From Takakia lepidozioides (Eukaryota > Plantae > Bryophyta), in NCBI GenBank assembly GCA_030704615.1, contig CM060733.1:67828001-67892000 (forward strand): a stretch of 64,000 nt of DNA. The letters run 5' to 3'. The notes under the pieces were generated by a model. It did no database searches. It was not told the DNA's origin and was given only the letters and a program-made list of their open reading frames with translations. Made by a program: the position numbers and the translations under genes. This document shows positions 2,369-28,170 of the stretch, piece by piece. How positions within the stretch are numbered: position 1 is the stretch's first letter; the number at the start of each line of letters is the position of its first letter.

Positions 2369-2932
2369 TGTCGCGCACCTCACTTCGGTAAACTCCCCCC
2401 CCCTCAAGTCATAGTTACTCGCTTGATGCGCGCGCCTAACTCCCAACCTGGCCACCGGGCCAACTTGGAGCTCCGGCTGCTCACCGGGGCATAACGGTCC
2501 CCCTTTGATCTCCCAAAGAACCCTCCAATGATTTGGAACTAGAGGAATTCCCTTTGGTAGTTGGCAGTCCGGAACAGTTCCCCACTCTTTGGTCGCTTTC
2601 CGACTCGCTCGATTACTCACTAGTTTTTGGTCACCAACGGGCTTGCACAGTTCTCGGGGTTACTACTCCCTATATATACTTCTGTAGCTGTCCGCGGGGG
2701 TTTCACAAACAACCATGCCATTTTATGGCGAACCACCATGAACACCCTCGACTCCCGGTGATGAGTCGCGGTGAGTCTTGGCCCACCCACCACGGCCCCT
2801 ATAGACCGTGATGAGTCCCAAGACTCCCCACGACTCCCACCGCCCCAGGGTGAGTCCTATGCCACCCCCACTAAGTCCCGCTAAGCTACCACCACCCCTT
2901 GTGGAGCCACCCCCACATGCGTAGCACCTACA
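2369..2932 (-). repeat. LTR (TGTAGG...CGCGACA on minus strand)
   Basis: TG...CA termini and an internal TATATA (about 2671). The 2369-2460 end matches 33780-33869, and the 2780-2915 part matches 63005-63145 in the opposite orientation. It interrupts the ORF at 2933. Confidence 0.65.
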
Positions 2933-3415
2933 GAGACGTCCGTGTCGGATTTGAACGACCGTGTGGAGGACATGGGGACCTCAATGCACTCATCTTCCTC
3001 GTCGGAAATGTCGAATACCTCCACACGAGAAGCTATGGAGGGTCTTGACGGTCTAGGTCGGGAATGATTATCGTTGCACACCTCTCTGTTGGCAGTGGCC
3101 GCCTGTCAGTTTTCCCGATTCCTTTGTGGATGGTGTCGGAACCGACTGATTCGGAAAGGGATTCCCACAGCTCGGTACAAGATGGTGTCTGATAGGGGTA
3201 CGTGCCACTCAATTCCGTAACCTCCATCATTACCTAGCACGACAATGGTCTCATCAACCCTTCCTTTCTTCTTCCAAATAAATTGTGCCAGGTTTGAGCT
3301 TGAATTTGGAACAAAGGTAAGTTTCAGTCACTCTGCAAAGTCCTCCCTCGTTTGGGATCCTGGCTCTCCCAAGTTGCGGAGGACAACAGACTACAGCGTA
3401 CGAATTGGGAGCCAT
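2933..3415 (-). pseudogene. Frameshifted ORF divergent from the palindrome array; possibly the N-terminus of the element's transposase
   Basis: MAPNSYAVVCC...LCSKFKLKPGTIYLEEERKG, then a frameshift, then DETIVVLGNDGGYG...YRAVG...VEVFDISDEED. Truncated by the LTR at 2932. The acidic VFDISDEED patch resembles IVELSDSFDDD in the N-terminus of the 16931-19140 transposase. Confidence 0.35.
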
Positions 3416-3809
3416 CGAACACCGCACGAAGTTGGCAAGTGCGAGGTTGATTATAGCGACAGACAAAGGCTCACAAGCACCACGTAATTGGAACTACCGG
3501 AGGCCATCCACGATTGGAGGTCGCACATTGAAGTTGGAAAGGATGTTTCAAGATACATTCATGAGGTTGGGAGGTGTGATTCCATATCCTGTATGTATAA
3601 CAATGATGGCCAATTCGGCGACGAAATAACATCTCCTAACAGTTTTTCCTGAGGGTGGATCCAGCAGTATTCTCGGTGCAGACATGAACGTTTGCATTGA
3701 TAAGTGCCAGGACTATTAGTTAAAACAGTTAGACAACCAAGTTGTGCTCATAAAGACAGGCCGCAATTGTGTTGTTTCAAAACAATGCATCCCATTGCAC
3801 ATGACGGAA

Positions 3810-5130
3810 CGGGAATGCGGTGCCGCATTCCAGTTCGACATCGTCCTCTCGCTAATTGTGATCGGAAATGCGGCACCGCATTTCCGTCAATGGGGAAACC
3901 AAACTAGTGCTGGAACGGAAATGCGGTACCGCATATCAGTCCACTTTACAAGCAGACACATGGTGGAACGGAAATGCGGTATCGCATTTTGGTCGACTGG
4001 GACTAGGAAGACACGGTAGAAAAGAATAGCGACACCGCATTTCCATCGACTGGGACACCTTGGATAGGCAGGAACGGAAATGCAGTGCCGCATTTCCATC
4101 CGGGCTCTTTTAATGGAATCCAGAGGACGGGAATGCGGTGCCGCATTTCCGTCCGAGCTGAACCTTTGTATTTTCCAAAACGGGTATGCGGCGACTCATT
4201 TCCGTCCAACATGCAAGGCCTGTAACAGTGCAACGGAAATGCGGCACTGCATTTCCGTTCGGGGGAAACCAATATTCTTTCCGGAACGGAAATTCGGCAC
4301 CGCATTTCCGTCCAACATGTAAGGTATGTAACAGTGGAACGGAAATGCGGTGCCGCATTTCCGTTGTGATTGTAAATCATGAGACAGTGTAACTGAAATG
4401 CGGCACCGCATTTCCATCGGAGTCGTACGTTCCGAATTTTCAGAACGGAAATGCGGCGCCGCATTTCCGTCCTACATGTACGGCATGCAACAGTGGAACG
4501 GAAATGCGGTACCGCATTTCCGTTATCCATGGAATCAATCAAACAGTAAAACGGAAATGCGGCACCGCATTTCCATCCAACATGTAAGGTATGTAACAGT
4601 GGAACGGAAATGCGGTGCCAGATTTCCGTTATCCATAGAATCAATCAAACAGCGCAACTGAAATGCGGCACCGCATTTCCGTGCGAGTCGTACCATCCGA
4701 ATTTTCAGAACGGAAATGCGGCGCCGCATTTCCGTCCTACATGTACGGCATGCAACAGTGGAACGGAAATGCGGTACCGCATTTCCATGGAATCAATCAA
4801 ACAGTGCAACGGAAATGCGGCACCGCATTTCCGTCCGGGGAAACCTTTCTACCTTCCAGAACGGAAATGCAGCACTGCATTTCCGTCCGGGAAAACCTTT
4901 CTACTTTCCAGAACGGAAATGCGGCACCATATTTCCGTCCGGGGGAAACCAATATTCTTTTCGGAACGGAAATGCGGCACCGCATTTCCGTCCGAGTCGT
5001 ACCTTCCGAATTCCCATAACGGAAATGCGGCGCCGCATTTCCGTTTTCACTCTAACTCATTAGACGCTGGGACGGAAATGCCATGATATATGAACACGTG
5101 GCCCAACGGAAATGCAGCACCGCATTTTAA
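3810..5130. repeat. Regularly interspaced 24-bp palindrome array (CGGAAATGCGGYRCCGCATTTCCG), about 26 units, 53-bp period
   Basis: Units start at 3810, 3863, 3916, 3969, 4022, 4075, 4128, 4181, 4234, 4287, 4340, 4393, 4446, 4499, 4552, 4605, 4658, 4711, 4764, 4810, 4862, 4914, 4967, 5020, 5073 (half unit) and 5107. Spacers are variable and mostly 29 bp. Confidence 0.97.
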
Positions 5131-5419
5131 TGTCTACACTCATGCTGGCTGAAGTGGCAGGAGGCGACGCGGCTTGACCGTTGGATAATGATGTTTGTTT
5201 GGCAGACGGCAGGCGTACCTTTGACGATTCGAATTTCGTAATGACGCATAGTCCACGAGGAGATACTTCCATCCCAACCTTTCGAACCCAAGCGGTGTAT
5301 CACCGCCGTTTCATCTTCTTTTTCGTGTCTGCTCAGTCGCCCATCTCGCGCCCTTTTCATGTGCACTCTTCGCCCCTTTTCCGTGTGTCTGTTCTTCTTA
5401 TGCTCCAACCAGAGAGGGA

Positions 5420-8318
5420 TGAAGTTCCTGCACCAGAGAAGAGACGTCGTCGCAAGCTCCGCAAATTGTACTTCGGTCGTTGGCCAATACCGAAGGGGAG
5501 GAAGCAGATGCGTCTTCAGGAGGAGATGGTTCATCGTGCAGCAGCAGGCAACGCAGGCAACCCAGCCCCTAGTGAGAGCACCGTGCTATCGGGATGCGCG
5601 GAGCTAATCGAGCACCAAAACCCTCCCTCCTTTTCGTTGTGCAATTGTTAGACTGTATGATCGGACACTTGAATGCAGAAGATGTTTGCATGTCTAACTC
5701 GAAAGGTGGAGGTGGTGGAGGGATCGCAGGAATCCGAAGAGCCGCAGGAAGAATCTGTGGAGCTAGCTGCAGCACGCACACCCATCCGATCCACGAGCAC
5801 GGGTCTTCCTGCCGGGCCTAGCCCTTTGCGTTTCAAGAACGCTGCTTGGAAAGACAAGTCTTTGCAGTTCAAAGCACCAGAGAAATACTCGCGTTTGAAG
5901 CTCATGGAGAATCGCCAGCAGGGGTCGGCTCCTTCTCCAACAAAAACAAAGAAGAAGCAGCCCGTCCTTGAACTAGTTTCTGAACCGGACCAGGCCGTTC
6001 CCCCCCCCCCCCCAAGAGAATGAAGCAGAAGGGTGCAATGCACATTCAAATGCAGCAGGCACCTTCACCTGCAAAAATCAAGAAGCAGAAGGCAATCAGG
6101 GGGAGGGCGGAGCAGTCTCCCGCAAAACCGATTCCACGAGCTAAAGCCCAGTTCCTGCTTGATTTCTAGACATGTGATGTTGGGGGCATCTCTACTGCAG
6201 CAAACGCAACGGGATCGACCGATTTCGTCGAACTGTCAGCGAAGGAGGGTGTTGCTGCTCATCGTTCGCAGCAGGACTTCACCACCGTTGTGGAAGAACT
6301 TCAGAATACTGCAGGCCCGGAGGAGGCCTCTGCAATGCGACAATTGCCCGCACAGATTCCCCAGACCACAGCTGCAGTTGGGGATGCTCTAGCTGCTCAG
6401 CCCATACTGCCACCTGTAGAAATGTCTCCAGAGGAATTCCAAAGTGCAGCGGATACAATGTTGGAGGAGACACACAGTAGTATTGGTAGAGTTCTGGGCA
6501 GCAGGGTATTCCAGCGGACTCTTCGAATTCCACTCTATCACATGGTCTCCCTTCCCATCATCAGGCAGGCTCTTCTAGGAGATGTGGATAAGCTCAAGTT
6601 TGCATTTCGAGAAGGGTATCGTCTAGGTTGGCCAGCCTTCTACGTTTCCATTGAAAATGAGGACGACAAAACTCGTGGACCCACTGCGGATGAATTGTCA
6701 GCATGGGATACCCATTGGCACACTCGCAACGACGAATTCAAGACAATGTTGAAGGGTGATCCAGACTTCGGCCATATGTCCGGCAAAATGTTTTTTGTGT
6801 GGGACGGGAATCACTGACTTCTTGCCTGGTGGGAGTACATCAAGCAGAACCATGCCAAGCATATTGGCTAGCATTACATGGTGGAGTGTGTCATCCTCAA
6901 AGTGAAGGCGGCAGACTCAAGAATGCCATGGCGGACCTCAACTCGTAAGATTCTCATACCCTCCCATGTGCGGTGCCGCATTTCGGTTTCCAATCAGTTT
7001 TGTTTCCGTGCTTGAATTGGAGAGTGTGCCTTGCAGGGTCACTGAAAATGCGTACGTGCATACTTACATGGCACATATGCTGTACAGGGTGAGGAAAACT
7101 GGTCTCACTAACCCGCACATGTTCGCCGAAATGCTGGAGCCGGAGCTCATTCAAAAAGCCATCGCAAAAACAGACCGGACATGGTATCGCCTCACTATAG
7201 ATGGTATGGTGGAGGTGATATACGAAGTAAGTCGTCCTCCCATTTTCCTCTGCTCATCCTTCCCCAATTTCCAGTCACCTTTCCACATGGATCAAATGTA
7301 ATGCTTCTGCATGTTTTTCTTGGCAGCCAAACATAAAGTTGGATTTGGCCCATGCCAAACGCTTCTTCATGGAAAGTGAGGGGCAGTTAAAAACGTTGCA
7401 GTCATTGACTGAGCACTTGAAGGAAGCCGTGGTCAAGTCCAGAACCAAATACAAGTCAAAGCTTGTGAAGCTGGTGGCCATTGCAGATCCGGCATTTGGA
7501 AAGAACTTCATCCCCGAGATTGCAAAACACTATTCTCGAGCCATGCAGCCGATAGTGCAGTTGGAGAAACTGCATCACCTGTCAACGGCATGTGTGGAGG
7601 CGAAAGAGAAGGTGAGGTTTCGAAGCACTGAAGTTCCTTCCTAGCAATAGCCACTCTACTTCTTGCTTCTGACATTGGATCGGAAATGGCAGACACAGTG
7701 GCTATCGATCTGGAATGCATCGGAGAGTATAAGGACCATGTGGTCTTTTCCACTTGAAGTTTCCGACCCTGCAGTGGATGTGTGGCTCAACCGCATGACT
7801 TGGTGGTTCCAGGTAATTCAAGGTATTTCCCCCAATTTGCTTTGCTGGCATGAATTCCGTGAACTGCTAAGTGATAATGCATGTTGGAAACGCAGGTAAT
7901 GACGAATGCGAAGGAGCAAGTCATAATGCATACAAATTCGTTCGGCTTGTACGTGAAATGGGATGGAACACAGACATTGGAAGACTATGTGACACGTTTC
8001 AGATGTGCGTACAAGGACAACTTATTCGCCAGGGAGCTGCAAAGAGCAAGAAGGAGCGTGGAGTGTACACATCAGGAGGGGGCGAGAAAAGCTGCAATGC
8101 AAATTGAGTACAGGTAAAGCCCAGCTCCCGTTGTATGCAAAAGCTGGGTTATGAGGTTTGCCTGGGAAATGCGCCACCGCATTCGCATTTTATGTTTTCG
8201 GTTGCACTATGCGAATACATTGGTCATAACTTGCGCTCACGTATGCTGACTGTCTTGTAGGTATATGAAATACGTGCTTCTTAAGACAGGGGCCCTAGCT
8301 GAGTTTGTTTCCGTACCA
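5420..8318 (+). pseudogene. Multi-exon ParB/Srx-like domain gene, copy C (3' part lost at LTR insertion)
   Basis: ORF 6290-6817: LRIPLYHMVSLPIIR...FYVS...MFFVWDGNH*LLAW (CGA>TGA). Downstream exons (about 7039-7227, 7327-7611, 7896-8113) are GT-AG bounded. The 7039-7227 exon is homologous to 22628-22825 of copy A. Confidence 0.7.
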
Positions 8319-9066
8319 TGGCGTCCCATGGCCAAGAACCAAACCCCACACTTGACTCTACTCTCCACTAGCTAGTTCGGCCGACTTCCTCCAAGTCCCG
8401 GCCAAGGGTGGAGCCTCTCAAGCTCCTCCCAGTGCACTCTTCTTGGCCTACTTCAAGGCCAAGGAACGATCCTCCCCGAGGATCGAATTGCCTTACTGCA
8501 ACAACATTGCTTGCGACCGCTCATGATGCCGCTTTTGGCATCACCTTGAGCAAGGGTTCATCTTGAAGATAACCTTGGACTAACCATGCGCCTCAATCAC
8601 TACAATTGGGTCCGTCTTGGAATGTTGGCCTGAGGTACGGGAACACGCTGAAGCCGCACTACGACTTCGTCCCGAGGCTACACGATTATAGTACGTGAAC
8701 GGAAGCACGTAGCTTCCGCGTTAGCCCGCACTACAAGGCAACCCCCTTGGTAGCACAGTTATAGTACGTGCATGCGCCAGGTGCGCACTAGCACGTAAAC
8801 TCCCAAGGAAGGCGCAAGTTTCCTTGCCCCTTGGATGGGAGTCACCCGATTCCGGCACTACGCAAACACACGATTAATCCAATTTACCTCTCCCACTTTT
8901 GTAAGCTAGCATGCATTCTACACACTAGCCAACCAAACCATGCATCACCATTCCAAACAAAATAGGACGCACAACATTTGGAAACCATTTCATTTATAAC
9001 AAAATTTGTACAATACAAGTTTTTGCAATCGGATTCCTGAGTTAGCTAAGCCGGGCTAAGCATGCA
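8319..9066 (-). repeat. 3' LTR of chromovirus
   Basis: On the minus strand the PPT GTGGGGGAGGAAA (9067-9079) is immediately followed by TGCATG. A CA end at about 8319 coincides with truncation of gene C. Confidence 0.65.
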
Positions 9067-11924
9067 TTTCCTCCCCCACGATCCAAGGTTGATGTCCCCA
9101 TCAACGTTTCTTCCGCTTTTGAGATTGCCCTTCGAAAGCTGCAACCGCCTCGGATGCGTTTCCCATTTCTAAGGCACGCACCCAAGATGCCTCCACATGA
9201 TGATAGCCCTTCCATTTCATGAGATACTCCATTTCTCGATGCTTGAACCTCCTCGACTTAAGCACTGCCTCCACCTCGTACTCATGTTCATTTTCATGAT
9301 CCAACAGCACAGGTGGCGGACGCAACACTTGATGCCGATTCGGACGCGCTTCATCTTTGAAGTAAGGCTTCAAAAGGGAGACGTGGAATACCGGATGCAC
9401 CTTGTTGTTTGCCGGAAGCTCCAATTCATACACATCCTCATTCAACACTTTTCGGATGCGAAAGGGTCCCGCATACGGAGGTACGAACTTCGGACTCACT
9501 TCCGGAGGTAGTCGGAAATTCTTGATGTTCAACCAGACCTCCGTGCTTGCCTCAAACTTAACTTCCCTCCGCTTCCGATTTGCCTGCCGTTCATACCATT
9601 TCCTAGCTTTGACAATGTTGTACTTTGCGAGCTTCAACAAACGTTCGCGTTCTTCCAGCACCGCTGCTGCTGCCGGTTTTCTCAACGTCTTGGGCGGCCC
9701 AACTTGTCGGCACCAGAGGTGTTTTTCCATAGACCAATACGAAAGGGGAAACTCCCGTTGCGGAGTGTTTTGTGTTATTATAACAGAACTCTGCCGCATC
9801 CAAGTGCTCCACCCAGTCCGATTGGTCTGCCGACACGTAATTCCGCAAGATCTGCTTCACCACGGAATTCACCCTTTCTATTTGGCCGTCCGTCGTAGGT
9901 CGGAAGGCGGTGCTCATCTTGAGCCTCGTCCCCATCTTCTTCCAAAGTGCCCTCCAAAATTTACTCGTAAACTTTGGATCGCGGTCCGAGACAATATCCT
10001 TCGGGAGTCCATGATGCTTGAAGACGTGGGCGAAGTAAAGTCGCCCCATCTCCTGCGCCATTGCCGTCTCCTTGGTGGGGATGAAATGGCCCATTTTACT
10101 GAACCTATCCACCACCACCATGATTGCATCAAAACCTTTTGACAGCGGCATAGCAGTCATGAAATCCATCAAGACACTTTCTCAAGACCCCTCTGGAATC
10201 GGCAAGGGTTGTAACAGCCCGGCTTGCTTTTTGTACTCGCTCTGGTTTTGTTGGCATGTGGTGCATGTCTTGACATACTCCTCTGCCTCCTCCCTCAGTT
10301 TGGGCCAGAATTACTCTTTCTTCAAGAGTGCCGCCGTGCGCTTAGCTCCGCCGTGGCATTCTCTCAAGAGGCTATCTCTGATCCCTCCCTTTGGCACATA
10401 GAGACGCTTTTGCTTATACCGGAGCAGTCCATTTTGCAAGTGGAACTGCGATTTAACCCCCATCCTCAAGTCCTGCATCACGGACTTCGCCAGCTCATCA
10501 TTCCGGCAAGCCTTCCGGATCTTCCTTTGGAGCGCCGTCTCGCCCCTGTACACCAATATAAGCTGCTGCTTTCTACTTAAAGCATCGGCCACCACGTTGT
10601 CCCGTCCCGGTTTGTACTGGATATCCACGTCGAACACCGCCAAAGTATCTTGCCACCTAAGTTGTTTTGGGGACAACTTGGGCTGCGTGGCAAAATACTT
10701 CACTGTGACATTGTCTGTGAACACCTTCACTGGGTTGGAACCAACATAGTGGCGCCAAAGCTCAAGACAGTGCACCACCGCCTTCATCTCTTTCTCGTGC
10801 GTCGGCCACCGTCGTTCCACTTCATTCAGTTTCTTACTTTCGTAAGCCACTGGACGTCCATCTTGCATCAGTACACCCCCAATCGTGAAGTTCGACACAT
10901 CTATATGAATCTCGAACGGACGATCGAACTCCGGGATTTTCAAGACTGGAGCTTCCGCCATCCGCTGCTTCAATTCCGCAAAAGCTTGGCCACAAAAGGT
11001 GTTCCATACCCAGACTTTGGATTTACACAGAAGGTCTGACAGCGGCCCCGCGATCTTGGCGAAATTTCTCACATACTTCCGGTAATAGGAGGCGAGTCCT
11101 AAGAAGGATCGCACTCCTGGGACCGAAGTCGGAGGCTCCCAGTCCAAGATTGCTCTCACCTTCCTGTTAACCATTTTGATCCCATCCTGTGTAATCACAT
11201 GCCCCATGAACTCCACTTTTGTGACCCCGAATTTGCACTTTGAAGCTTTGGCATACAGCTTCACTTCTCGCAATGGAACACCCTTTTAAGGTGATCCAGG
11301 TGCTCTTCCTTTGTTTTTGAGTACACCAGTATGTCGTCGATGTATACGATCACAAAGTCATCCAACCACTCCTGGAAAATGCTGTTCATTAATGTGCTAA
11401 AGGTCGCGGGTGCGTTGGTGAGCCCAAAAGGCATCACCAATAACTCATACGAACCATATCTTGTCCTGCACGCGGTCTTCTCCTCATCTCCTTCTGCCAC
11501 TCGGATCTGATGATACCCGGAGCGCAAATCGATCCGGCTGAAATACTTCGCTCCTGCCAACCGATCGAAGAGGTCGTCAATCCTTGGCAAAGGGTACCGG
11601 TTCTTGATAGTCACCTTATTCAGGGCCATGTAATTGACACACATCCGCAACGTCCCATCCTTCTTGTCTGCGAATAGCACCGGGGCTCCGTAAGGTGACT
11701 TACTCGGCCGGATGTACCCCTTTCACATTAGATCCTTGAGCTGAGTATTTAGCTCGACCAACTCTCTGTGGCTCAACCGGTAGGGCGCCTTGGCAGATGG
11801 TTCTGATCCCGGTATCACCTCAATCTGGTGGTCAACTCCCCTTTGCGGTGGCAAGCCGCTTGATAAATCCTCCGGCATCACATCCTGGTATTTCTCCAAG
11901 ATCCCCTTGATCCAATCTGGGCTC
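9067..11924 (-). mobile_element. Ty3/Gypsy chromovirus pol: RT, RNase H, integrase, chromodomain (frameshifted, 5'-truncated)
   Basis: RT: DLRSGYHQ...MPFGLTNAP...YIDD. RNase H: AYESKKL...DALSR. Integrase: MDFMTAMP...VVVDRFSK...SDRD...TDGQIER. Chromodomain: YEVEAVLKSR...YLMKWKGY...SWV. Confidence 0.95.
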
Positions 11925-12436
11925 TGTTAGAGGGCTGCTTGGGACTTAGACGCTTTTACGGGTTCTATGGGGTACCCGTAATTTTTGCGCAGACTGAGAT
12001 CAACAGGAGCCTTAGGGGTGGCAACAGCTGGCTTTAGGGGGGTTACACAGCCCGACACAGCTTTACACAGCCCGTCACAGCCCGACACAGCCCAACATAG
12101 CCAGTCACAGTCCGACACAGCCCGCCACAGCTTCGCACATCCCGTCACAGCCAGTCACAACCGCCACAGTTTCGCACCGCCCGTCACAGCCCAACACAGC
12201 CAGTCACAGCCTGACACAGCCGACACAGCCTTACACAACCAGTCACAGCTCAGCACAGCTTGACACAGCCTGTCACAGTACATGGGGAACAATTATCATT
12301 GATAGGGAACGACTGTGAGGGAACGACATCTGCAGAAGGAACGTGTTACTTCAGGGATGACGGTTAATTAGTTAGGTGGTTAGAACAGCTTGCGGGCAGA
12401 TAAGGAGAGCGGCAACGGAAAGAAGGACACTTCACA
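11925..12436. repeat. Probable solo LTR (TGTTAG...TTCACA) with internal CACAGCC-type tandem repeats (12045-12280)
   Basis: TG/CA termini fall exactly at the breakpoints of two different Gypsy elements. Contains a degenerate 10-20 bp repeat cacagccc(g/a). No TSD seen. Confidence 0.5.
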
Positions 12437-15400
12437 GGGAGCGAGCGTGAGCGGGCAATGGGTTTTACCACTGGTACCACGGCGGTGCCGTCTCTTTTTG
12501 AGGCATCACATCGTCAGGTGTTGGGGCAAGCAATGGATCTCAATTGCTTGACCTGGATTATCAGCTTGGCTATGGCTGAGCAACGCAGAGTGCGGAGTAC
12601 ACTTCCCTCGATGGTCTCTCTGCCTACCGAGATGGTACAGGCAGTGAGTGGGGGCGAGCATGAGAGGACCACGGGGTGCAGGCATCCATGGCACACGTGG
12701 GAGGTGCTCGAGGTTTAGAGGGAGTTGGCAGCCAAGGCGGCGGTGATGGATGAGGTTGGGGATTTTTCTTAGGTTGAGGAAGTCCTCAAGGATGAGATGA
12801 TGGGGCAGGATGAGGCCATGTCATTGACTGAGCAGGCAGGGACAACTGCTCAAGAGGTTGCAACATAACAACCACTAGACGTGTCCTCTACCTCTAAGCC
12901 CACTGGACTTAAGGTTGCAGTTACGGATGACAATTGGGAGCCTGACATTTGACCCATTGTCACCGGAGGAGAGAGACGACGTATACGGCGGTTCCTGAGG
13001 GCTTACAAGAATTGCTTTGCCTTTAGTTTGAAGGACTTGGGATCACTGAAGGGTCAAGAGATTCGTATTGAGTTGGCCACTGACACGCCAATCTTTTGGA
13101 GACCCTATAGATACAGTGACATGGAGAGGTCTTTGATTCAAATGAGGACTCAAGATCTCTGGGAGGCTGGTTTGGTGGAGCTCTCTGGTGGAGAGTATGC
13201 TTCAGCCACAGTGATGCCAGCCAAGAAGGATGTCTATGGCAATTGGACGGAGAGACGTATGTGCGGTGATTACCGGCCTGTAAATCGTCAGACCAAATCT
13301 GATAAGTATGCCATGCCAACACTAGAGGAGATCTTTGATGCCATCGGGCATGCTAAGGGCACTTTGGATTTATGATCCGGATATCACCAGTTGCCGATCA
13401 AGGAGGCGGACAAGCAGAAGACGACATTCTGGGGGATCAATGAGCACGGCAAGGATTGCCTATATCAGTGGCGGTTCTTACCATTTGGGCTTAAGAATGC
13501 TCCTGCAGAGTTTCAGAGAGTCATGGATAGGATTCTAGCAGGGGTGGACTTTGCTCGGTGCTACATAGATGACATCATCATCTTTAGTGCTACGGTGGAG
13601 GAGCATAAGAATACCTTCAGGTGGTATTGGAGCGCTTGAGAGCGCACAGATTGAAGTTGCATCCGGGGAAGTGCAAGTTTTTCCACAACCAGATTGAGTA
13701 TCTGGGTCACATGATATATCCTAGGGATTAAACAGACTAAGGTAGAGGCCATTGCACAAATTCCACGCCCCATGAATGTGAGCCGAGTTTGAGCTTTCAT
13801 GGGGTTGACAAACTATTATAGACGGTTTGTCAAGGGATTTAGTGCCATTGCAAAGGCTCTAACCAAGCTGACCAAGTGGACCAGGAGTGGCAGTGGGAAG
13901 ATGAGTAGGAACGAGCTTTTCAAGAGCTCAAGGCGAGGTTGACCTCGGCGCCTATCCTGAGATGACCTATCAGGGGGCGTCCCTTTCAGCTGCATACGGA
14001 TTGGAGCATGCTGGGGCTTGGAGCGGTGCTCACACAGGTGGATGATGAGGGAAGAGAGTTCGTAGTGGCTTATGCTAGCCGCTCAAACAACGTTGCAGAG
14101 GCTAAGTATAACTCATATGAGGAAGAGCGCTTAGCTGCGGTGTGGGCCGTGGCACACTTCAGGTGCTATCTATACGGCAATCTCTTCACCCTTGTCACGG
14201 ATCATCAGCCACTCAAGTGGTTGATGGAGTGAGACAAGCTTACGAGGAAGCTTGCACGGTGGGCACTCATACTCCAGGAGTATGACTTTCAGGTTGTGCA
14301 TCGACCGGGTTTGGTCAATCGGGATGCGGATGGATTGAGTCGCAATCCATGCACGAGCCAGCAGGATGACACTGGAGCTCGGTGGCATGGTGAGACGGAC
14401 GAGGAGATGGTGTCGGGATGGCACGCATCTGTATTTTTGTGTATCTTGGCATCGGGAGGTCAGGTTGGACCTACAACAGGGATGACTATAGACGGATTGT
14501 CTGAGGACCCTGAGGCTAGTGATGAGCCAGGTGGTGCCAGAGATATACATGAGGATTCGGCTGTGTTGGACTACCTCCGCACGGGAGACACGGCAGCCAC
14601 TGTGACTGTCAGGGAGAGGGATCGGATCCTGCAACGAGCCAAGAGGTTCAAGTGGGAGGGGATACACATGCTCCGAGTTACACATGCTCCGAGTATGGGA
14701 GGATGGTCGGGTGAGGATTGTGCCCCACACAGCGTGCACGGTTAGTGCGGCATGCCCATGAGGAGTTGGGGCATTTTGGAGTGCGACGTACTCACAGTTT
14801 ACTGCAGGGGCAGTATTGGTGGCGTGGTATGCATACAGAGGTGCAATAGTTTGTGGCTAGGTGCATGGTGTGTGACAGGGTGCGTGCTTCATTCAACGCC
14901 CCTACACCACAGTTGGATCCTTTACCAATCATGGGATTGGGCTACAGGTGGAGTCTTGACTTCGCAGGACCGTTGCCACTGACTATGCGCCACCACAGAT
15001 ATGTGTTGGTGATGGTGGAGCACTTCTCCAAGTGGATTGAGTTGGTTCCATTGCCAAACAAGGCTAGTGAGGGGGCTCCGTATGCATTCTTGGATCGTGT
15101 GCTTAGCCGATTCGGTGCTCCAGCTGAGGTACTCACGGACCAAGGGAGAGAGTTCTTGGGGGAGTTTCAGGCTTTGTGTGATAAAGCTTTGATAGACCAC
15201 CGCACCACTTCTCGGGATCATCCTGAGGCCGATGGCTTGGCAGAGAAAGTTGTTCAGACGGTAAAGAGGGGTTTGCGCAAGTATGGCTTGTAGAAGGGAC
15301 ACCTAGGAGATTGGGATCTTCAGGTTCCTTGGTTAGCCATGGCCTACAGGTTCAGCAAACAAGCATCACTTACCTCCTTCTCACCATATTTCCTTCTCTT

Positions 15401-16930: not shown

Positions 16931-19140
16931 TCTAGAAACAAGTGGCATTCCTTGGGCGTACATGCTCACTGCCCGTGCTATCTTGCTTGGATCCCCAGAT
17001 CTGCTTGCAGCACGCAACATCAACTCCAGTTTGTCCGGACCCTTGCCACCAACCCCACCTCGCAAGAAATCATGGTATCTGGTTTGTTGTTGCAAGGCAC
17101 GTATCATATCATCTGTTGTTGCCACATACAAATCCCGACCTCGTTTCCCAGACTGTTGCAACCATGCGTTGTGCACAGTCTTTGCCAAATTGCAAGATGG
17201 CATGTCCGCCATTTCCTCAATGGACATGTTCTGCAAAGTGGATAACCACACTTCAGAACAGTGCACAGGGAACAACATAAAGAAAGCAAGGAGAGCAAAA
17301 TTTGAAAAGTAAATGTATGAATAAAGTAAGCAATAGAAGCCTCGCATCATTGTCATGGCTGCTTCCCACTGTCTGTACCGGAAGTGCCAAAATGCCAGCC
17401 AATCTTCCAATGCTCTCATACTCTCAAGGGATGCAGCTCCAAAAGAGAACCGCCAGGCACGAATTGTCTGGAACAAAGTGTCCGCCTCCTTCAATGTTCG
17501 AGCATCTTTGTACTCTTTGCACAATTTACGGTGTTGTGTCTGCATCTCTGGTTTGATGTCCGACTTTGTATGTTTCTCCAGAGATTGTGTCCAATGGAAT
17601 AGACATGTACGCTTTCTTCCCGGCATTGGCACTTTTAGGTCGCCTGATCCGAAGACAATTCGAACAACATTGAAATTTGTCTGAGCACTATCTGCCATGA
17701 AACCAGCAAAATTTGGAGATGGCAGCCCATAATACGTATCAGGGAATTCCACATGAGCTTCTGGGATTCCGTATCCTCAGATTGCATGTCACAAACTACA
17801 ATTGTCATAACTCGTTGGTACACTGGATCGTAGACATGACAAGCCATTGTCGTCCAATCTTTCACTCGTTTCACATGATCAAACATAAGAAAACAATTCT
17901 GCAGGTCCCCAGTCTTCTGCATCCGCTTCACGAGGCTAACCCCACTGCCCTCCCCAGCAGTCGACATTTTGAAAAGGATTACTTTGATGGCACCTTGATC
18001 TGGAAAAACATTGTCCTGGATGTAGTCGTACTTGCTCAGTCGTTTCAATTCCAAAATGTTGTTTATGTAGCCTCTGATCCAAGAGCCCATTCTCAATGCA
18101 TTGATCTGATGCTGAATGTTAGGTGAACTCAAAGTGGAGAAATGATCCATGACAATGTCCAATGCCGGACCGTCAAGTTTAGTTCCCGTAGAATTCCCTT
18201 CACTCAAAATATGGCTTTCCAAGAAGGACTTGCTTGCGCCAAGAGCAATTGCAGATGTTGTTGCGGATGGGTTTATCTCGTACTCCTGTTTAATCAACCT
18301 CGATACTGGCTCAGCACTCAGGATGGTTATGGAAACCAAAATGCACACAAGCTCTTGTCATTGTTTTCAAACGGTGGACAACATAGTACATTTTTGCTCC
18401 ACACAGCGCCAGGCAAGATGGTACAAGTTTGCAGAATTCGCAAACGAAAGTGGTTGCCGGTGGAGGAGCAGTCCCAGGCTTAAAATGGATTTTCCGCGAG
18501 ACCCTCCCACTCGCTTTGATTATGAACCCCAAACTGAAGAAAGTGTCTGCAATTCAAACTGTCCATTGCAAACTGTTCTCCTGAAAACAAGCTTGTCATC
18601 ATTTTGAATATTGGATGTTTTTGTTCTGCACCATGGGTGCCCGTCGTGTTTATTGTCCATTCCGAGCATCATGCATGTTATACCTCCAACTCGCGGAGGT
18701 AGCTTGAATAGGATATCCCCATCAAAAGTCTCTGGCAGGAACTTCAGAGGCACCTACTTCAAAGATTCCCAATCAATTCCTCGCAACTCACTTTTGAAAC
18801 CTGCCATTCCTCCCATCGCCCGTAGTTTTGGAATGGCACTACAAATCTCTTCTTCATCCGCTTCCACAACTACAGTAGGAAGGACTGGAGTTGGAATTTC
18901 ACTTATGTCATCATCGAACGAATCCGAAAGCTCAACGATTGGAGTGGAGGACGTCTATTCTTTTTTCACCACCACCTCCCTTTTGTCTTCAACGACTGAA
19001 GCAGCAGTCTCGGGCGTCACATATGATCCAAGGGACTTTGGATTTGACATGAGGTTGTGGTGTTTGTGGGATGGATTCATGAAGATTGCCATTTCATTCT
19101 GGATTCTTTGTTCATTTTTCTTTCTGCCGGAACATCTGCA
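16931..19140 (-). pseudogene. Mutator-like (MULE) DDE transposase with WRKY/GCM-like Zn domain; 3' end cut by LTR
   Basis: Zn-binding region HPWC...C...CEFC...C...C...HFGFHNHP. D1 in FLMFDHVK, D2 in FMADSAQ, MULE-type CLFHW motif. The catalytic E position reads CNLAKTVHN (apparent E>K). Contains stops and frameshifts. Confidence 0.75.
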
Positions 19141-19203
19141 ATAAAGTAGGGGAATTCAATCTTTTACGAAGAGGATGAGAAATGAACATTAAAAATGTGT
19201 AGT

Positions 19204-22200
19204 TCAGTCTGACTCAGAGTCAGTACAATGTATCCCCACGTCCTTTGCATCCAAGTCCAAGTATTTTAGAACTCCAGATCTACGATGGCTACACCTGCGG
19301 TCGGGCAATAAAAAGTCAGGGGAGAGAGCCTCGGCCATTTGAAGTGCCATTGCTTCGGCATACACCGGAAGCACAAAAGTGGAAAGGGGGGTGTCGAAAA
19401 CAGTCTCGCCACAAATGGGGGTGTCTCCTGAAGATCCACCGCTGCCTTTCCTGCAAGTCACAGCAAGAAATATGTTATTACTGCAAATTTGATGTCTGCG
19501 ATTGAAAAGGGCACCCAAAGTGGAATGACAATTCCATTGCAGACTTACTCACATGAAAAATCATTGCGGACCTGCTTATCCTCGTGATCCTCATCATTTC
19601 GGATTTGAATCGTTTCAGTTTGTGTGCTTGATGTAGAGCCAGACAAAAGGGGGAGGAGCACAGTCTTGTATAGGTCAGAGTCACCCACCATGCCAAAAAG
19701 GGATCTTCCGCCTGCCTTGCACGCATGGTAAGTTCCTCCTGCAACAGACAAGAGGACATGAACAGCTTGTAGGGGGGGGGGATTAACGAAGATGGAAATG
19801 GTGAAAGAAAACCAAATCTGAAGGGAAAAAACGAACCTGTGGATACTGAGAGGTCGACCACCCGTGCAGAATGGTGGCTGCATGACTCCAGCAGTGTCTG
19901 CATGAACGCTGGGGTTTTCTCCTTTGCACCTCTCCAGGGAGTGCCATCTGGTTTTTTGAGAGTCTGACTGGGCTGCATGAAGTTGTACAAAATGTCATCA
20001 ACATGCGGCTCATACGGGGGATTGATGAAACACCCCTTGGTCAGAAATCTCGAAGCTGCGGACAGAGGATGGTGTTCTTGAGGTCGGAATCCTTTGCAGG
20101 CAGATCGCCTCGAACATCCTCATTTGCGAAAGACAGGAGGTTAGGGTGCGAAATATAAACAACAGTGGAATTTTGTAGATTGGCACTTCAAAACATAGGC
20201 ATGCAACAAACTGATCAGTCAAGTCTTTTTGATGATCGGTGCCGATCATCACAGATTATTGTAGAGTTACGCTGTAGAATACATTGAAATAAAGCAACAA
20301 AGCACACCTAAGAGGGAGGCGTCATACCAGCTGACCAGGACAACCCCCTTTCACAAGATAGAGGATGTTCACACAATTCCATGTGCGCAGAATTTCAAAA
20401 CCAGAGGACTTCAAGTACGATGCCAATGCCCGACGACTATCCTTGTCACATGACTGAAAGAGTAGAAGTGTCCCTGCATCAGAAAGGAAATAGTTGCAGA
20501 ACCCGAACACCCAACTCCAGTAGTTGTCATCGAATTTGTTCCAGCTTGGCGTCTTGCCCTTCGGAAGAACTTCTGGCACAGCCTGGCCGTCCGAGATGTC
20601 AAGAATAACCATGTCTGCAGCAAACGTTTTCTGCACACCGCACACGAAGGAGGGACCAGTGCTCACCTGCGACAGACATGTTTAATTTGAGAACGAAGAG
20701 AAGAATGATTGCAAAGAAATAAATACCAATACTGCCAATGTCACCTACGAATGCAAAGGAAAGAAAGTTAAATTCCCACCAGATTGAGGAATGAGATCAT
20801 GTTATCCCAAGTAGGCGAAGGCACCCCAGTGTATCCTTTCTTCCAACTCTCCATCATCGCCAGCCATCCCTCATTGACAATCTTAATCTCCCCTGCAGAA
20901 TCAGCATGGGAAGGGTGTGGCCTGGCATCGAACACGCACTGAAGTATACCTTCTGGCGGTGAAGTCCTTCTCACTCTCCTGCTCTTTCTCCTTCTCCTTC
21001 TCTTTCTCCTTCGACTTGTCTTTGTCCTTTGTCTTTGCTGGTGACTTGGCTGTGCCATCTGGAGCCTTGTCCTTGGGTTTGCGCCCACCCTTCTTGCCCT
21101 TCTGGGCTATTTCCTGAGCGTCAGGCTCCTTGGCAGCCAGTGCTGCTATGTTTCTTTGGTACTCCTCATCGTTCAGAGGTGCCAACATCTCAACATGATT
21201 GTTCAAATATTTCATCTGCTGCTCCTGAAAAGTGTTGTGCTCAGGAATGCAGTCCAGGTACCAACCACAGTCCCTGAAGTGTGCAGGACTCCAGTCCTTC
21301 AATATCCCTGCAGTATACATGGTTGGATCGTTTCCCGGGTCCGACCACATGTCAAGATAATCTGGGACACCACTGAGGTTATTTCCATCCATCACCACAT
21401 ATTTTGTGTACTTGGAACCACGAGACAAACTGGAAATCAATCTCTTTATGCAGAAGCCCATTGTCTCAAAGTGAATGTCGGCACCGACATTCAGAAATTC
21501 GTGAGAGAAACACTGCATATAACTATTGGGCACCCTAGAAAACGTACAAGAAATCTCTTGGTATAGAAGCTCACAATAGCTTTGGATGCGATGGTCATCA
21601 ACGACATTCACAAAATTCCATTCAAGAACACTGCCAACACACCCTAAGTTCCCTAATCCATGTGAATGAAATCTCTGTCCATAAGAGCTCACAGTCATGG
21701 AAGTGAATGTCGGCACCGACATTCACTTCCTATCAGTGAAGAGCCCTTCTAACAACGCCTAAGGATTTCTCACAAGATGCAACATAGTTTCTAGTTGGAA
21801 ATGCACCTATACACAACTCGCATCATGGCCCACTCCCCCCCAACCTGATTGTCAAAGTCGTTGGACCGCAAAATGTTACCATCCTTCGAAAACTCCCGGA
21901 AAAAATAGTATCGCCAAGTGAGACCTCTCCACTTCCTGATGTATGCTTCCAATGTCATTTGAGGCGGGGAAACAATAGAAATATTCAAGTGTTTCAAATT
22001 CTGCTCGAGGACAAGGATGATGCGCTTCTCCAGCTGCAAAGGGTGCATTTGTCAGTTTTGCAAATAAGGTATTCATTACATTCATGGAGTCAACAAAGAT
22101 GAAACTTCAATGAATATACACCTGACTCCAAAATGTAGCTTTGTGAAGCCAGTTGTCAAACACAATGTCACTGATTCCCTCCACCTTTGTTCCAGGCTGT

Positions 22201-24929
22201 ATAGTGCTCTTAGGGAACTGATTCAAGTCCTTCATTGTCTGATTTGAGTTCCAAATCTCCAGCCATCTAATTTTGGTTTGGGGTCAACCATGGAGATGGC
22301 CAGCCGGTCTCCTGCTGCATCTCCGGGTGCACGTGCTTGTCATAGTGAGATTTGATCTGCAGAAGGAACTCCTCTCCAAGGCCAGGATCTACGATTCTAA
22401 GCTGCTAGAGAAGGCGGACATCAGTTTGGTTCTCTGAATTTCATACTCCTTCTTTAATGCTGCCTCCACACCCTTTGATGTCCTAAGTTCCTCTGTTGTA
22501 GTGCGGTAGTATTCGGATTTCCCCTTCTCAGCTGCCTCTGCTAGTTCTTGCTGCATTGATCAAAGTAGGGATGAGTAAAAACGAATCAAACATGTCTTTA
22601 AAAAGACAAGTGAGTACAAGCTCGGCCTTACTGCATACATGTACTCCAGAAACGCCTCTCGAGTCAAAGAATACCAAGTGCCTGCAACTCTTCCTGTTTC
22701 GCACTTCTTGATTATATCGGGGTGGAGTACTGTGTGAAAATCATCCAGCTTCATCAGACCAATCCTCTGAATTCGGAACAGTGTGTGGACCAAGCTTGTT
22801 GTCACATGCAATTTCTCTGTCGATCTGCAAAAAGAGTGGAATCAATGCATTGGTAAACATCGTTTTTTGGTGGGATCAACAAGACATTGAAGAGGCAATG
22901 GAGTCTCTAGGATGACATACTTGTTCACGTCGTGCATAGCTGTAAGAAGCCTAGCGATGTCGTTTCCAGGATCCAGAACCATGGCCTCTACAGCGACATG
23001 CTTGTCTTTTTTGAATGATGTTTCTGAATGTATCCCATCCATGCCAGCAATCGGTGGTTGTCGTCCTAGACGTAGAACATGTGGTTGCAGAATTGCTGGG
23101 TGTTTCTTCCCATCATGAGGCCCAGCTCGAACTCCTCATTAACATCTTTCCAGCACTCATCCCAGGTATCGGTGATCTCAGGAGACACTAATGTGCTTTT
23201 CCCATTTGTATCCGTCAGTGACACATAAAAAACTTGTGCACCAAGTCTGTATCTATGCACGAAATCAGTTTCCAATTTTGTAATGTCATGGGAAAGTGGA
23301 GGACGCACAATAGGCATAGATATCATCCGACATAGTGGGATGTCAAGACGCCCTCGAGAGACGAGCATGTCCCTAATAACCTCCTGAGAGTTTACCTTCT
23401 GGAATGACATGAGTTCTTTCAACTTGTCAAGGTAGTGCACTTCAAGTTCATTTGTTTCATCGCTATTCTCCGAGCTCTTGGCAGACTCGTCCCCATCTCC
23501 ATAACCTTTTGCCTCTGTTCCTATCTGTTTGGACTTCACAGTTTTCTGCACGATGCCATGCCAATCAGACACTGAGTTATGTGCAAATAGTGAATGTCGA
23601 TACCGACCATCAGTCTGTCTTGTCTCAAATCACAGTGAATGGCAGCACCGACATTCACAACCATCTACACTAACAAAGCTGATACAGACGAATGCAAACC
23701 AAGACACTATGACTACATAGTGATGGTCGGTACCGACAATCACTATGTTTCTGGGCAAGCAGATACAGAAAGGTTATGAGCATTAGCGAACGACGTTAAC
23801 GACAATAAAAAAACATTACATTTGAAAGACCTACAAGATCGATTTGGTGCAAAGAAATATATCTCATAGTGATTGGCGGCACCGACACTCACTTTAGTTT
23901 GTAACAGAAAGTGAGTGCACAGAAGTCTATGTTTTCAAAGGAATGCGATTGACGTCAATCAGAGAGACTCCATTGTGATGATCGTTAAAGACAATCACTA
24001 TTTCTTGTCTATTTGGAATGTACTTTGCAATCGTTTTTAGACATGAAACTACAGTATGGTCTCAAGAAAAGTGATTGGCGGTACCGCCATTCCTCTTCCC
24101 TAGTCTGTTCAACCTGAAACAGAGAAAATGCAATGCAAGACAATATGACTGAATATGCCGACCATCACTCTCTCTCCACGCATACAGGTACAGGAAGCTC
24201 ACAAGGAGAATCGAATGGCGTTAATGACACTCACACTACACTAGAATGGAAAACATTGCGTTTGGTGTAAGTCAATACTGGATCATAGTTACTGTCGGCA
24301 CCGACACTCACTTTATGTTGTATCATAATGAGAGTTTTGAAATGACAGAGAATGACGTTGCCGACAATCACAGGTTCCTGCTACAGAAAGAAAGAGAAAG
24401 AGTGCTGGAAAGGCAATCAGAGTGACTCTATGATCTGAAGAACAGTGAATGGCGGTACCGCCAGTCACAAACAACTGGTATGAAAAACCATAAATAGAGG
24501 AATACAAAGCAAATCAACATGAATTCATAGTGATGGTCGGTACCGACCATCACTTTCTAGGACATTTCACTCACTCACTTCGTAGATCTGTAAACAGGAA
24601 ATGGAAGGGTGGAGAACACTTACTGGCGCATTCTTCGGTTTTGAGTTTGGATCCCCTTCTGCAACTTTCCTCTTCCCCTTCACATCTGTCGGAATTCCTA
24701 TCTGCTCTAGGGTTTGTAGACCTTCTCCCGGTTCTGCGTTCCCCGGACTTCCACCTCCTTCAGTTTCCTTGCGAATCATCTCTGCTTCCACAGTCTGGTT
24801 TCCAACGCTCACTGTTCCCGCTGGCTGTGTGACAGCTGTAGCCTCATTCTCGGTCTGCTCTTTTGTTGCAGTCTCCGCGTTCACCTGCTGTCGTGGCCTT
24901 GTGTTCTCCATCAAACGACGCCTCGTCAT
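19204..24929 (-). pseudogene. Multi-exon ParB-like + beta-class N4/N6 DNA methyltransferase-like fusion gene, copy A
   Basis: ParB-like exon 22922-23572 (GRLDIPLCRMISMPIVRPPL...MFYV*DDNHRLLAW). MTase-like exons 20325-20666 (ADMVILDISDG...FLSDAG), 19838-20123 (WRGAKEKTP...VVDLSVST) and 19550-19739 (GGTYHACKAGGRSLFGMVGD). Last exon 19204-19451 is joined via a TGTGA|GTAAGT donor. Confidence 0.7.
23590..24553. repeat. Cluster of about 12 dispersed 24-bp palindromes (GTGAWKGTCGGYACCGACMWTCAC) in the putative first intron of gene A; further copies at 20229, 21471, 21703
   Basis: Starts at about 23590, 23635, 23720, 23869, 23975, 24071, 24145, 24211, 24288, 24348, 24445 and 24530. The last is a perfect palindrome, gtgatggtcggtaccgaccatcac. 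Confidence 0.9.
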
Positions 24930-25705: not shown

Positions 25706-28170
25706 GGAGAAGATGCAAAGGGTGGAGGATGAGAACCCTTCAGAGCAGGAAAATGAGATCATTGTTGATGTGGACAATGAGTTCTATGAAAGCAAAGCCG
25801 CGGAGATGCTGGGGGGTCAGAAGGTAAATTCTCAGCTTGTGGTGCAAAGTATGCTTGCCCTGGGTGGGAGGTTGAAGATTCCCCTGTGTAGGTTGGTTTC
25901 CATGCCCGTCGTTCGTCCACCCCTCATCAAGGACATCCAGAAGCTGGAGGCCGAGTTTGTTCATGGGTATTTGGATGGATCCGCAGTCTTTTACGTTTCT
26001 ACTAGGGATTCCAGAGGCAAAGAGCTCCTTGTGGATGAGTCAATCGTGGACACTTGGGATCCCATTTGGAGACATGTGAACGAATCCTTCGAACTTCTTC
26101 TCTCTAGGAAACCTTCGACCCAAGCATTCTCAGGGAAGATGTTTCACGTATGGGATGGCAACCACCGGTTGCTTGCATGGATGGCTGTCATTGGGAGGCT
26201 GCACTCACAGGAGGAAGAGTGACATTACTGTGTTCGAACGATGGTGCTGGATTGTGATGGGAACATGATCAGGATACCCCGGGTAAAGGTAGAGATGCAA
26301 AGGCAAAGGATGTGGCTGTTGGTGTAGGGAAAGGAAGGGGTAGGGGGAAAGAGCGCAAGGGCAAGTGGGTGGGCAAGGAAGTGTTACAGAAACTGGCCCT
26401 ACGGCGGATGTCTAGCAGACCAAAGAGACTCCACCGCATGGTAGGGGATCCGGGAGAAAGAACAAGGGGGTGGTTGATCCTAAGGACCCGTATCATGCAG
26501 TGGAGCATCCCACGAGTGTCATTCACCCTACCAGGTTGGAGATGGCCAACGTCGGGTTCCTTGCCATGATGGAGTCCAAGAAATCTGATTACAAGGGCGA
26601 TCAATCACCAGTGTGGGAGAGGATTGTGGAGTTCCTCAGCACGGTGCGTGTTGTCTTTTGCTTCTTGTGTGTTGTGGGCATGGCTCGTTTCAATCCTCTT
26701 GAGCATTCCATTGCATGCTTGTTTGCAGGCTAAAATGACCAAATCCTGGATGAACGGGAAGGAGAAGCCATATGCAGCCGAACTCATCATCTTGGACATC
26801 CTTGATGGGTTGCCAGTCCCGGATGTCCCTCCAGCGGGTGCTTGTCCAGGTTGGAATGCTTTTGATGAGTGCTACTGGCGGTGGGTTTACTCTTTTTGCA
26901 ATTTCTTTCTGTCCGATGCAGGTGTTTTGGTGCTCATCCAGTCCATCGACCTTCGTTGTCGCCGTGCACTTGCCAGCTATTTGAAAGCTTCCGGTATGAG
27001 GGTCGTGAAGACCTAGAATTGTGTGAACAACATGTACCTGACGAAGGGGGATCGTCGGGAGAGATGGTAAATCTGCCTTTTTATTCCTCTTCTTGGTGGT
27101 TCTCGGATGGAGTTGCATAAGTCGCTCAAATGAATATGTAGGGGCCTGATTTTCAACCTTCTTAGTTCCTTGTGGATGTCCTATTCGCAGACTCGTTTGT
27201 TTGAAGCTGTTTGTCTCGTCCGAGTGCATCCACCTACGACTCCAGCCGTCATTAGGGAGTTCGCCATCACTCATGGGGGCAAGTTCATAGACGAGAGGAC
27301 AGATCCTCCCACGGATGACATGCACCACAACTACGTGGACATCAACGTGTGCTTGCGAAGGGGGAATGGGGTTCCTTGGAGAGGGGCCAGGGAGAGGAGC
27401 CCGACTTTCATTCAAACGATTGTGGAGTGCTGCACCTACACCGATGCCAGATTTCTAGATTTGTCAATGGGCACAGGTTCGTCTCTTCAACATTCACATT
27501 TGATTGGGTTTGTTTGAGCTTGCACTTTCAGCACTTCCCACCGTTCCAAATGAGTCTTCAATGTCTGTTTCCTTCCTTCTATTCCATTGCAGGTGCTTCG
27601 TACCACGTTTGCAAGGCCAGTGCGCGACATCTCTTCGGGATTAAAGGGGATGCCGAAATTTACAAGAACCTCTTGATGGGTTTGGGTGGACACACTTCTC
27701 AAGTCCTTCCGAAGCCCCTTCCCGGTGATATTGATACAGGGGAGACGTCCGACAAGGAGCTGGACTCCGACTTTGCCTGTGAGTAAGTTCAACCTGTGGA
27801 TGCTTGCATTGTTGTTTCAATACCCATAATCACTGTTCTTAAGGCAAAGTGTACATGAGAGACATCCTCTTCATTGGACTTGTGCATTGCATCATTGTAT
27901 TCAAAATGGGTTTTTGTCGACTTGTGCAGGAGTCCGTGTGCTTCCACTGACCCTCCAGGGCTATCACACCTTTTTGGACTTCTTTCAAGTCATCCTCAGT
28001 CTTACATGCTACCCATCTATGCGGAGGCACTCGCAACAAGCATGTCCGTTCATGGCACTCGCAGTCCAACCATCGACGGCCGTGGTAGCAGACGTGGTGT
28101 TGGGGCCGGAATCTTTGTGGATGACATAGTACAAGAGGTCGATTCTGATTCTGATGACTGTGACACTTGA
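25706..28170 (+). pseudogene. ParB-like + beta-class methyltransferase-like gene, copy B (internal deletion near 26270)
   Basis: 25713-26222: GRLKIPLCRLVSMPVVRPPL...MFHVWDGNHRLLAW. 26730-27066: AELIILDILDG...FLSDAG. 27191-27476: WRGARERSP...FLDLSMGTG. 27592-27782: ASYHVCKASARHLFGIKGD. Last exon 27930-28170: LPIYAEALA. Intron positions match copy A. Confidence 0.75.

Follow-up and report, generated by a model that had tools for sequence, protein, structure and literature searches.

The 64-kb window (the whole stretch of DNA analysed here) contains an array of 24 regularly spaced palindromic units, which is best explained, at a probability of about 0.6, as a helically phased loading site for the putative binding of dimers of a Mutator-type transposon's own ParB-like protein. 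A scan of the window for the 26-bp core placed the unit starts at 3809 + 53n (n = 0 to 18, up to 4763), with 18 successive intervals of exactly 53 bp followed by intervals of 46, 52, 52, 53 and 53 bp. A half unit lies a further 53 bp on, at 5072, and a lone unit is found at 5106, 34 bp from this half site. At 10.6 bp per turn, the period of the array corresponds to 5.0 turns. The 53-bp period and the list of units had been reported in a first-pass annotation of the same DNA and were recovered here as 24 full units, the half unit and the lone unit. That annotation had divided the period into a 24-bp palindrome and a 29-bp spacer; the sum was right, but the unit is better drawn as a 26-bp dyad with a spacer of 27 bp as standard, which measures 20 bp once and 26 bp twice.

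The site follows the 26-bp consensus ACGGAAATGCGG-YR-CCGCATTTCCGT, in which the dyad centre is a pyrimidine-purine step in all 24 units (CA 11, TG 5, TA 4 and CG 4). The arms keep 541 of 576 positions over the 24 units, and 16 of the 35 mismatches are C>T or G>A. In contrast, the modal identity per spacer column in the unit alignment was mostly 30-70%, which agrees with the earlier description of a conserved palindrome and variable spacers. The recurring spacer types described at the same time were likewise confirmed: types are shared by units 8, 10, 13, 15 and 18, by units 14, 16 and 19, by units 12, 17 and 23, by units 9 and 22, and by units 20 and 21, and TRF identified a higher-order repeat in which a 265-bp block of five units is duplicated. 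With one representative per type (13 of the 24 spacers), the mean identity between spacers was 34%, compared to 25% for shuffled sequences (p < 0.001). The spacers are therefore old homologues or have flank preferences in common, and they are not captured foreign DNA. Descent of all spacers from one ancestral unit, at the same rate of divergence as the palindrome and with no constraint on length, had been named as the finding that would speak against a functional array; the spacers probably do derive from ancestral units, yet they have diverged far beyond the arms while retaining their length.

Two lone copies of the palindrome, at 6962 and 8163, were absent from the earlier list, and each falls within an intron, bounded by GT and AG, of the gene to the right of the array (gene A). 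Beyond these two and the array, a window-wide scan that tolerated up to 9 mismatches in the 26 bp revealed no further copy, and the exact palindrome pattern matched neither viral contigs nor metagenome contigs. The features are listed in Table 1.

Table 1. Features of the array, its flanking genes and the paralogous genes, with positions in the window
Feature	Position	Strand	Basis
Palindrome array, 24 units	3809..5071	.	26-bp palindrome with YR centre and 27-bp spacer
Half site and lone degenerate site, right end of array	5072..5131	.	Core scan
Lone copy of the array palindrome, gene A intron	6962..6987	.	6/26 mismatches
Lone copy of the array palindrome, gene A intron	8163..8188	.	6/26 mismatches
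Mutator/IS256-type transposase gene (predicted), 5' fragment	2917..3418	-	Match to a profile built from 46 homologues of the second transposase in the window
Gene A, intron-containing pseudogene with predicted ParB/sulfiredoxin-fold domain	5400..8300	+	Fold model, profile, introns
Ty3/chromovirus-type LTR retrotransposon inside gene A, foreign to the element	8301..12300 (right end approximate)	-	Pfam Chromo, SH3_Tf2-1, RT_RNaseH
Mutator/IS256-type transposase gene (predicted), broken, downstream of gene B on the same strand	17345..19074	-	Homologue model
Gene B, paralogous ParB-like pseudogene with methyltransferase-like C-terminal part	19400..24900	-	Homology to gene A
Gene C, third ParB-like pseudogene with methyltransferase-like C-terminal part	25726..27830	+	Divergent from gene B

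The transposase fragment on the left is frameshifted, is ended at approximately 2914 by another repeat and has a direction of transcription leading away from the array, which starts approximately 390 bp upstream of the transposase start. The fragment scored 11.9 bits against the transposase profile, compared to a maximum of 4.3 in 1976 scored shuffles, its frames having been picked after a first match of E 4e-4 among six frames, and the match was to the N-terminus of the family. This profile is the only means by which the left gene was identified, and a word-based homologue search with one of its frames found no protein. The open frame at 17345..19074 has 80 long homologues, 46 of which were used for the profile. 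The model of a homologue 61% identical to this frame matched the IS256/Mutator transposase ISCth4 at E 8.9e-4 and a GCM domain at E 5.1e-3, and Pfam assigned no family to any of the 46 homologues. On the strength of this model, the element is predicted to encode a DDE transposase with a Mutator/IS256 fold. With the transposase fragment on the left and the ParB-fold gene on the right, the array lies between two divergent genes. The transposase and ParB genes are also divergent in three related loci described below (L044, L061 and L066), and the layout of the gene B region is co-directional. Mutator elements have terminal inverted repeats and an 8-11-bp target duplication; both ends of the array-bearing element have been lost to insertions of other repeats.

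The start of gene A is approximate, and its C-terminus lies outside the window, the gene being cut at approximately 8300 by the LTR retrotransposon (comparison with public contigs placed the junction at 8300/8301). The ParB/sulfiredoxin domain spans approximately 6485-6919 and includes a G-N-H-R-x-x-A motif; two premature stops were found in the conserved exon. An AlphaFold model from 94 rows reached a pLDDT of 91.6. Every one of the 11 VIA matches of this model at Z >= 2 read as a ParB/Srx-fold protein, with Srx at Z 6.8, KorB at 6.4, serine kinase at 6.3 and PadC at 5.8, all below Z 8, and Foldseek likewise ranked Srx and ParB first, with none at E <= 0.001. Sulfiredoxin thus scores as high as ParB on the model. 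The G-N-H-R-x-x-A motif is 81-98% conserved over the 94 rows, and we take it to resemble the ParB CTP-binding GxxRxxA motif. Gene A is accordingly described here as encoding a predicted ParB/sulfiredoxin-fold domain.

A profile built from gene A and the paralogous genes B and C retrieved 880 representatives at E <= 0.001, and the named eukaryotic members among 10 of those representatives were Riccia and Adiantum. A word-based homologue search with gene A returned 1 protein only, Pfam gave no real family for the 24 window frames or for 14 ParB-like homologues, NCBIfam gave sub-threshold matches only, and a sequence search of the PDB found no relative. In the Atlas, a Riccia homologue matched ParB_N clusters. 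The middle region of a Riccia homologue showed no identifiable helix-turn-helix or other DNA-binding domain (no named family; Atlas best 0.81), which is the main gap in the proposal that the ParB-like protein binds the array. The 24 window frames scanned by Pfam included no ParA-like frame, the element being truncated. As a separate observation, the Atlas clusters nearest to residues 170-330 of P0149 included fungal DUF3723 as the top match, together with unnamed cnidarian and molluscan clusters, a hint that ParB-like mobile genes may be more widely distributed among eukaryotes. DUF3723 is Starship cargo, and a literature search found no paper naming it together with ParB.

A full-length Riccia homologue (1207 aa) has a C-terminal similarity to N6_N4_Mtase at E 5e-5, below the Pfam cut-off, and the link of the gene B and gene C tails to this family is weak and indirect (iE 0.35). 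The norm for the methyltransferase catalytic motif is DPPY. The five sequences inspected have D-L-P-T, D-F-P-I, D-V-P-F, D-I-S-D and D-I-L-D at this position, and the motif therefore looks degenerate in all five. Equation of the methyltransferase with Marchantia DN4MT1 was considered and found no support, ParB not being mentioned in the relevant passages of that preprint.

Gene B is accompanied by a palindrome family of its own, TGAATGTCGG-YR-CCGACATTCA, with 14 copies between 20230 and 24531, all with a YR centre. These copies lie in non-coding stretches including introns, and their spacing is mostly irregular, with an 85-bp spacing occurring twice. The stretch 16900-27830 can be viewed as a second element region, comprising the divergent ParB-like genes B and C and the transposase co-directional with gene B. 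Two more dyads were seen at 53718-53824, one of them near-identical to the B-region site at 20230; no ParB-like or transposase similarity was found nearby, and they are perhaps the remnant of another copy.

The window also holds introns, PPR repeats and Ty3 retrotransposon domains, features that point to a land-plant host. In a Ty3-type retrotransposon at 12950-16000, the integrase is followed by a PHD finger, and a second, partial copy is inverted at 42770-43830. Decayed PPR-repeat fragments at 46380-49800 are tandemly duplicated in blocks that are 83-96% identical, which is unusual for a PPR gene and may indicate that they are borne by a mobile element. Inverted repeats of 193 bp (57351-57543 and 58851-59043, 95% identical) surround 1.3 kb of DNA containing an open frame of 277 aa, for which Pfam gave no match. 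An intact-looking, intron-containing host gene at 36580-38735, whose single exons have no Pfam match at 0.001, is presumably a gamma-glutamyl hydrolase gene from the way it reads.

The region 2914-8300 belongs to a high-copy family, with 36,921 matching pieces in one public run, possibly that of the source sample itself. Pieces of the region, non-coding parts included, also occur in a run presumed to be RNA, which was not counted as a sign of expression. Other copies run on past both of these ends, where the window copy is interrupted by other repeats, and the array is therefore internal to the element and not subterminal. At 10 joints within the arrays of other copies, taken from 12 of 85 rows, the period was 53 bp six times (one of them merely a spacer switch), 52 bp, 64 bp and, twice, 33 bp. 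The spacer letters at these joints were mostly absent from the window copy, and spacer length was thus held despite different letters.

Related elements were assessed in the best 80 of 223 metagenome loci with a ParB-like exon, which formed 42 clusters. A palindrome family of at least 3 copies was found in 12 of the 42 cluster representatives, compared to none of 126 shuffles; the remaining 30 clusters, many of them shorter than 3 kb, gave no such family. Of five control stretches taken from the window, four had no more than 2 copies, and the fifth, which lies in the duplicated PPR DNA, had 5. Each palindrome family has its own arms, often placed around CGG-NN-CCG: a dyad with this core occurred in 10 of 42 representatives but in only 2 of 840 shuffles, and 14 of the 42 clusters share the core. 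The outer arms track the clades of the ParB-like proteins, and the dyads of some clades are built without the CGG-NN-CCG core. Arms that follow protein clades show inheritance and not binding. In five loci of at least 11 kb, the ParB exon is no more than 2.2 kb away from 25 of the 27 sites. Two loci displayed further arrangements. L009 carries 85-bp (8.0-turn) arrays of 9 and 14 units on either side of the ParB exon (1-789 and 3011-4193), and the dyad symmetry of this site is lost on one arm, suggesting that half sites are tolerated. In L066, another palindrome recurs every 31 bp (approximately three turns), five times in all, at 113-237, beside a transposase fragment and away from the ParB exon.

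The periods that recur within families are 32, 51, 63, 74, 75 and 127 bp in the loci and 53 and 85 bp in the window. Together they peak at 10.6 bp, with V = 0.90 (p = 5e-5 for an a priori range of 10.2-10.8 bp and 1e-3 for a free scan of 6-20 bp). Leaving out the window periods gave V = 0.87 (p = 0.002 a priori and 0.04 in the free scan), and p was 0.001 when the related L018/L033/L050 clade was represented by a single value. The 47 other tandem arrays in the same sequences, in contrast, gave V = 0.005. The effect was weaker when all distinct gaps up to 300 bp were included (V = 0.41, p = 0.003 a priori and 0.047 free), and restricting the gaps to 140 bp raised the free-scan p to 0.16, the all-gap V ranging from 0.41 to 0.47. 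When 53 arrays were split by whether the TRF consensus unit holds a dyad, V was 0.55 with and 0.15 without a dyad, a weak contrast (p = 0.05); for periods of at least 40 bp, the values were 0.72 and 0.40 (p = 0.10). Four of the control arrays in this split do hold degenerate dyads, noticed after the test, with periods of 85 bp (8.0 turns), 105-106 bp (9.9-10.0), 129 bp (12.2) and 124 bp (11.7, off phase). Not every element needs phasing, as site spacing is irregular in gene B, L061, L073 and L076. The regular arrays do show a genuine tendency towards phased spacing, which does not extend to each individual site.

These data support the first-pass proposal of a phased protein-binding platform between two divergent element genes, as regards the flanking transposase fragment and ParB-fold gene, the spacer length held in other copies, and the other palindromes at other near-whole-turn periods in related elements. 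The protein then suggested as the binder was that of gene C; the adjacent gene A product is the likelier candidate, being the nearest ParB-fold product, with its gene surrounded and entered by sites. In the mechanism that we favour, each dyad with its 2-bp centre would bind one protein dimer on double-stranded DNA, and the whole-turn spacing would place all dimers on one face, where contacts between them could give rise to a cooperative filament spanning the two promoters. Once bound, the protein may shield the element from host silencing or set its transcription, and the N4/N6-methyltransferase-like C-terminal domain found in full-length relatives would probably assist in this. The array itself may have originated by tandem duplication of a site with its flank, with selection holding the dyad and the unit length while the spacer letters drifted. 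The window copy is a fossil, and since both of its genes are broken, its array could be bound only in trans. A more far-reaching version appears doubtful, namely that land-plant Mutator elements contain a working eukaryotic parS/ParB system, in which a nucleotide-gated clamp would load onto family-specific, same-face palindromes, spread over the element and carry a bacterial-type N4/N6 methyltransferase that marks self and blocks silencing, with site and protein diversifying by family.

It is unlikely, although several features suit the idea, that the transposase binds the sites through its GCM-type DNA-binding domain, for the sake of its own promoter or a transpososome, and that the ParB-like gene is a bystander. 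The array lies approximately 390 bp ahead of the transposase start, a GCM-like domain was matched by the model of the transposase, and, according to a 2026 preprint, the AtMu1 transposase activates cognate copies sequence-specifically. The sites, however, cluster around and inside the ParB-like gene, including the introns of genes A and B, in L061 the ParB exon is 0.27-1.4 kb away from them and the transposase over 1.5 kb, and the internal position of the array also argues against this possibility; the clustering near the ParB gene is biased, because the loci were collected through the ParB exon. Less likely still is a neutral minisatellite, in which slippage or unequal crossing-over expanded a palindrome-containing unit, self-templated repair or conversion preserved the arms, and the period is accidental. 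Such an origin would account for homologous spacers that recur in blocks, and the share of C>T or G>A among the arm mismatches, the decay of the window copy and the weak phasing contrast between arrays with and without dyads are all compatible with it. It would leave unexplained the lone intronic copies, the presence, in many clades, of family-specific dyads close to the same gene, the fixed length of spacers with different letters, and the six near-whole-turn periods outside the window (p = 0.002).

Binding of a host transcription or chromatin factor, or nucleosome positioning, with the array acting as a phased enhancer for the element, is improbable. The CGG-NN-CCG core shared by 14 of 42 clusters could be read by one factor, and whole-turn phasing suits any same-face binder; yet the outer arms are family-specific and track the ParB-like clades (which does not prove co-evolution, as kin share labels), and the core is missing from the dyads of some clades. 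We consider least probable of all a transcript of serial hairpins cut into small or guide RNAs in a CRISPR-like manner, as the first-pass annotation had offered as an alternative. The array does fold strongly (z = -8), as expected of any palindrome array, but the dyad centre has 2 nt only and the best fold pairs neighbouring units instead of giving one hairpin per repeat. No Rfam family was matched at gathering score, and 19 matches to miRNA models were sub-threshold. A guide function is further disfavoured by the recurrence and homology of the spacers, which have no protospacer-like match: no full-length match with up to 5 mismatches was found in 518 kb (window and loci), and there was no phage match and just two 36-bp plasmid matches covering 3%. 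The intronic lone copies and whole-turn periods point instead to double-stranded DNA.

Specific candidate sites are now available for over ten families, along with named homologues from a liverwort and from ferns and a geometric rule, by which unit length falls near n x 10.6 bp and which insertions of 5 bp can break; the question is therefore directly testable. If loading by the ParB-like protein holds true, it would constitute a second land-plant transposon self-targeting system besides VANC, assembled from components of bacterial partition and methylase systems, and would offer orthogonal protein-site pairs to targeted epigenome editing. To our knowledge, VANC is unrelated to the ParB-fold accessory protein.

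Among known systems, the array resembles a CRISPR array in its constant repeat-spacer geometry with dyad symmetry. This assignment was rejected: the spacers fall into approximately 5 recurring homologous types with the database matches given above, the flanks are a transposase fragment and an intron-bearing ParB-fold gene in a eukaryotic host, and no cas family was found among the 24 flanking and window frames scanned. The arrangement is closer to a partition locus, in that a ParB/Srx-fold gene adjoins tandem inverted repeats at a whole-turn period. The passages on F-plasmid sopC (PMC3177203) describe 12 units of 43 bp, equal to four turns, and argue for same-face SopB dimers. Both arrays consist of tandem units with one inverted repeat each, a fixed purine/pyrimidine order at the dyad centre and degenerate terminal units, and the sopC binder is a ParB-family dimer. 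As described there, however, the sopC sites measure 16 bp, have a purine-pyrimidine centre and are separated by conserved spacers, and the locus serves ParA-dependent plasmid segregation, whereas the present array has 26-bp sites with a pyrimidine-purine centre and divergent spacers, in a eukaryotic transposon with no ParA among 24 frames. In the passages on Arabidopsis VANDAL elements (PMC5735166), VANC, a Mutator-like accessory protein, binds family-specific motifs whose density matters, and the motifs have multiplied into tandem repeats within introns and between genes, much as seen here; they are 9 bp long and non-palindromic, and the words "palindrome" and "helical" are absent from the text of that paper.

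Closer still are transposons with ParB-like accessory genes. The ParB-HTH methylases of chlorophytes and chytrids (Iyer 2016, PMC4738411) are not gene A's family in the passages concerned. In the brown alga Ectocarpus, Sola1-1_Ec32 is described in part of PMC12477816 as encoding a ParB-like and N4mC/N6mA methyltransferase protein of approximately 1100 aa on the strand opposite the transposase. By that description, it has the same domain order as the 1207-aa Riccia homologue; it is a Sola-1 and not a Mutator element, and the passages mention no site array. For the red alga Bostrychia, passages of a preprint (bioRxiv 10.1101/2025.02.11.637652) describe the Plavaka gene PAG3, with an N-terminal ParB-like domain and tandem inverted-repeat arrays alongside, propose self-binding and self-modification, and report homologous cassettes in Chondrus Mutator elements. 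The likeness, again by description, is that of a DNA transposon harbouring a ParB-like accessory gene next to arrays of inverted repeats, which is also what was found here. ParB accessory genes beside inverted-repeat arrays are thus already on record from red-algal transposons, and given the Bostrychia, Ectocarpus, sopC and VANC precedents the kind of system is known as a hypothesis. In the open-access papers searched, no report of a land-plant Mutator setting or of cross-family phasing was found, and the PAG3 passages state no period or phasing. According to the same passages, PAG3 combines an EnSpm/Plavaka transposase with a fusion of ParB and 2OG oxygenase and a methylase on a separate gene, whereas the present element is of land-plant Mutator type, has intronic sites in addition to the array, and belongs with full-length relatives in which the ParB-like domain is fused to an N4/N6-methyltransferase-like domain.
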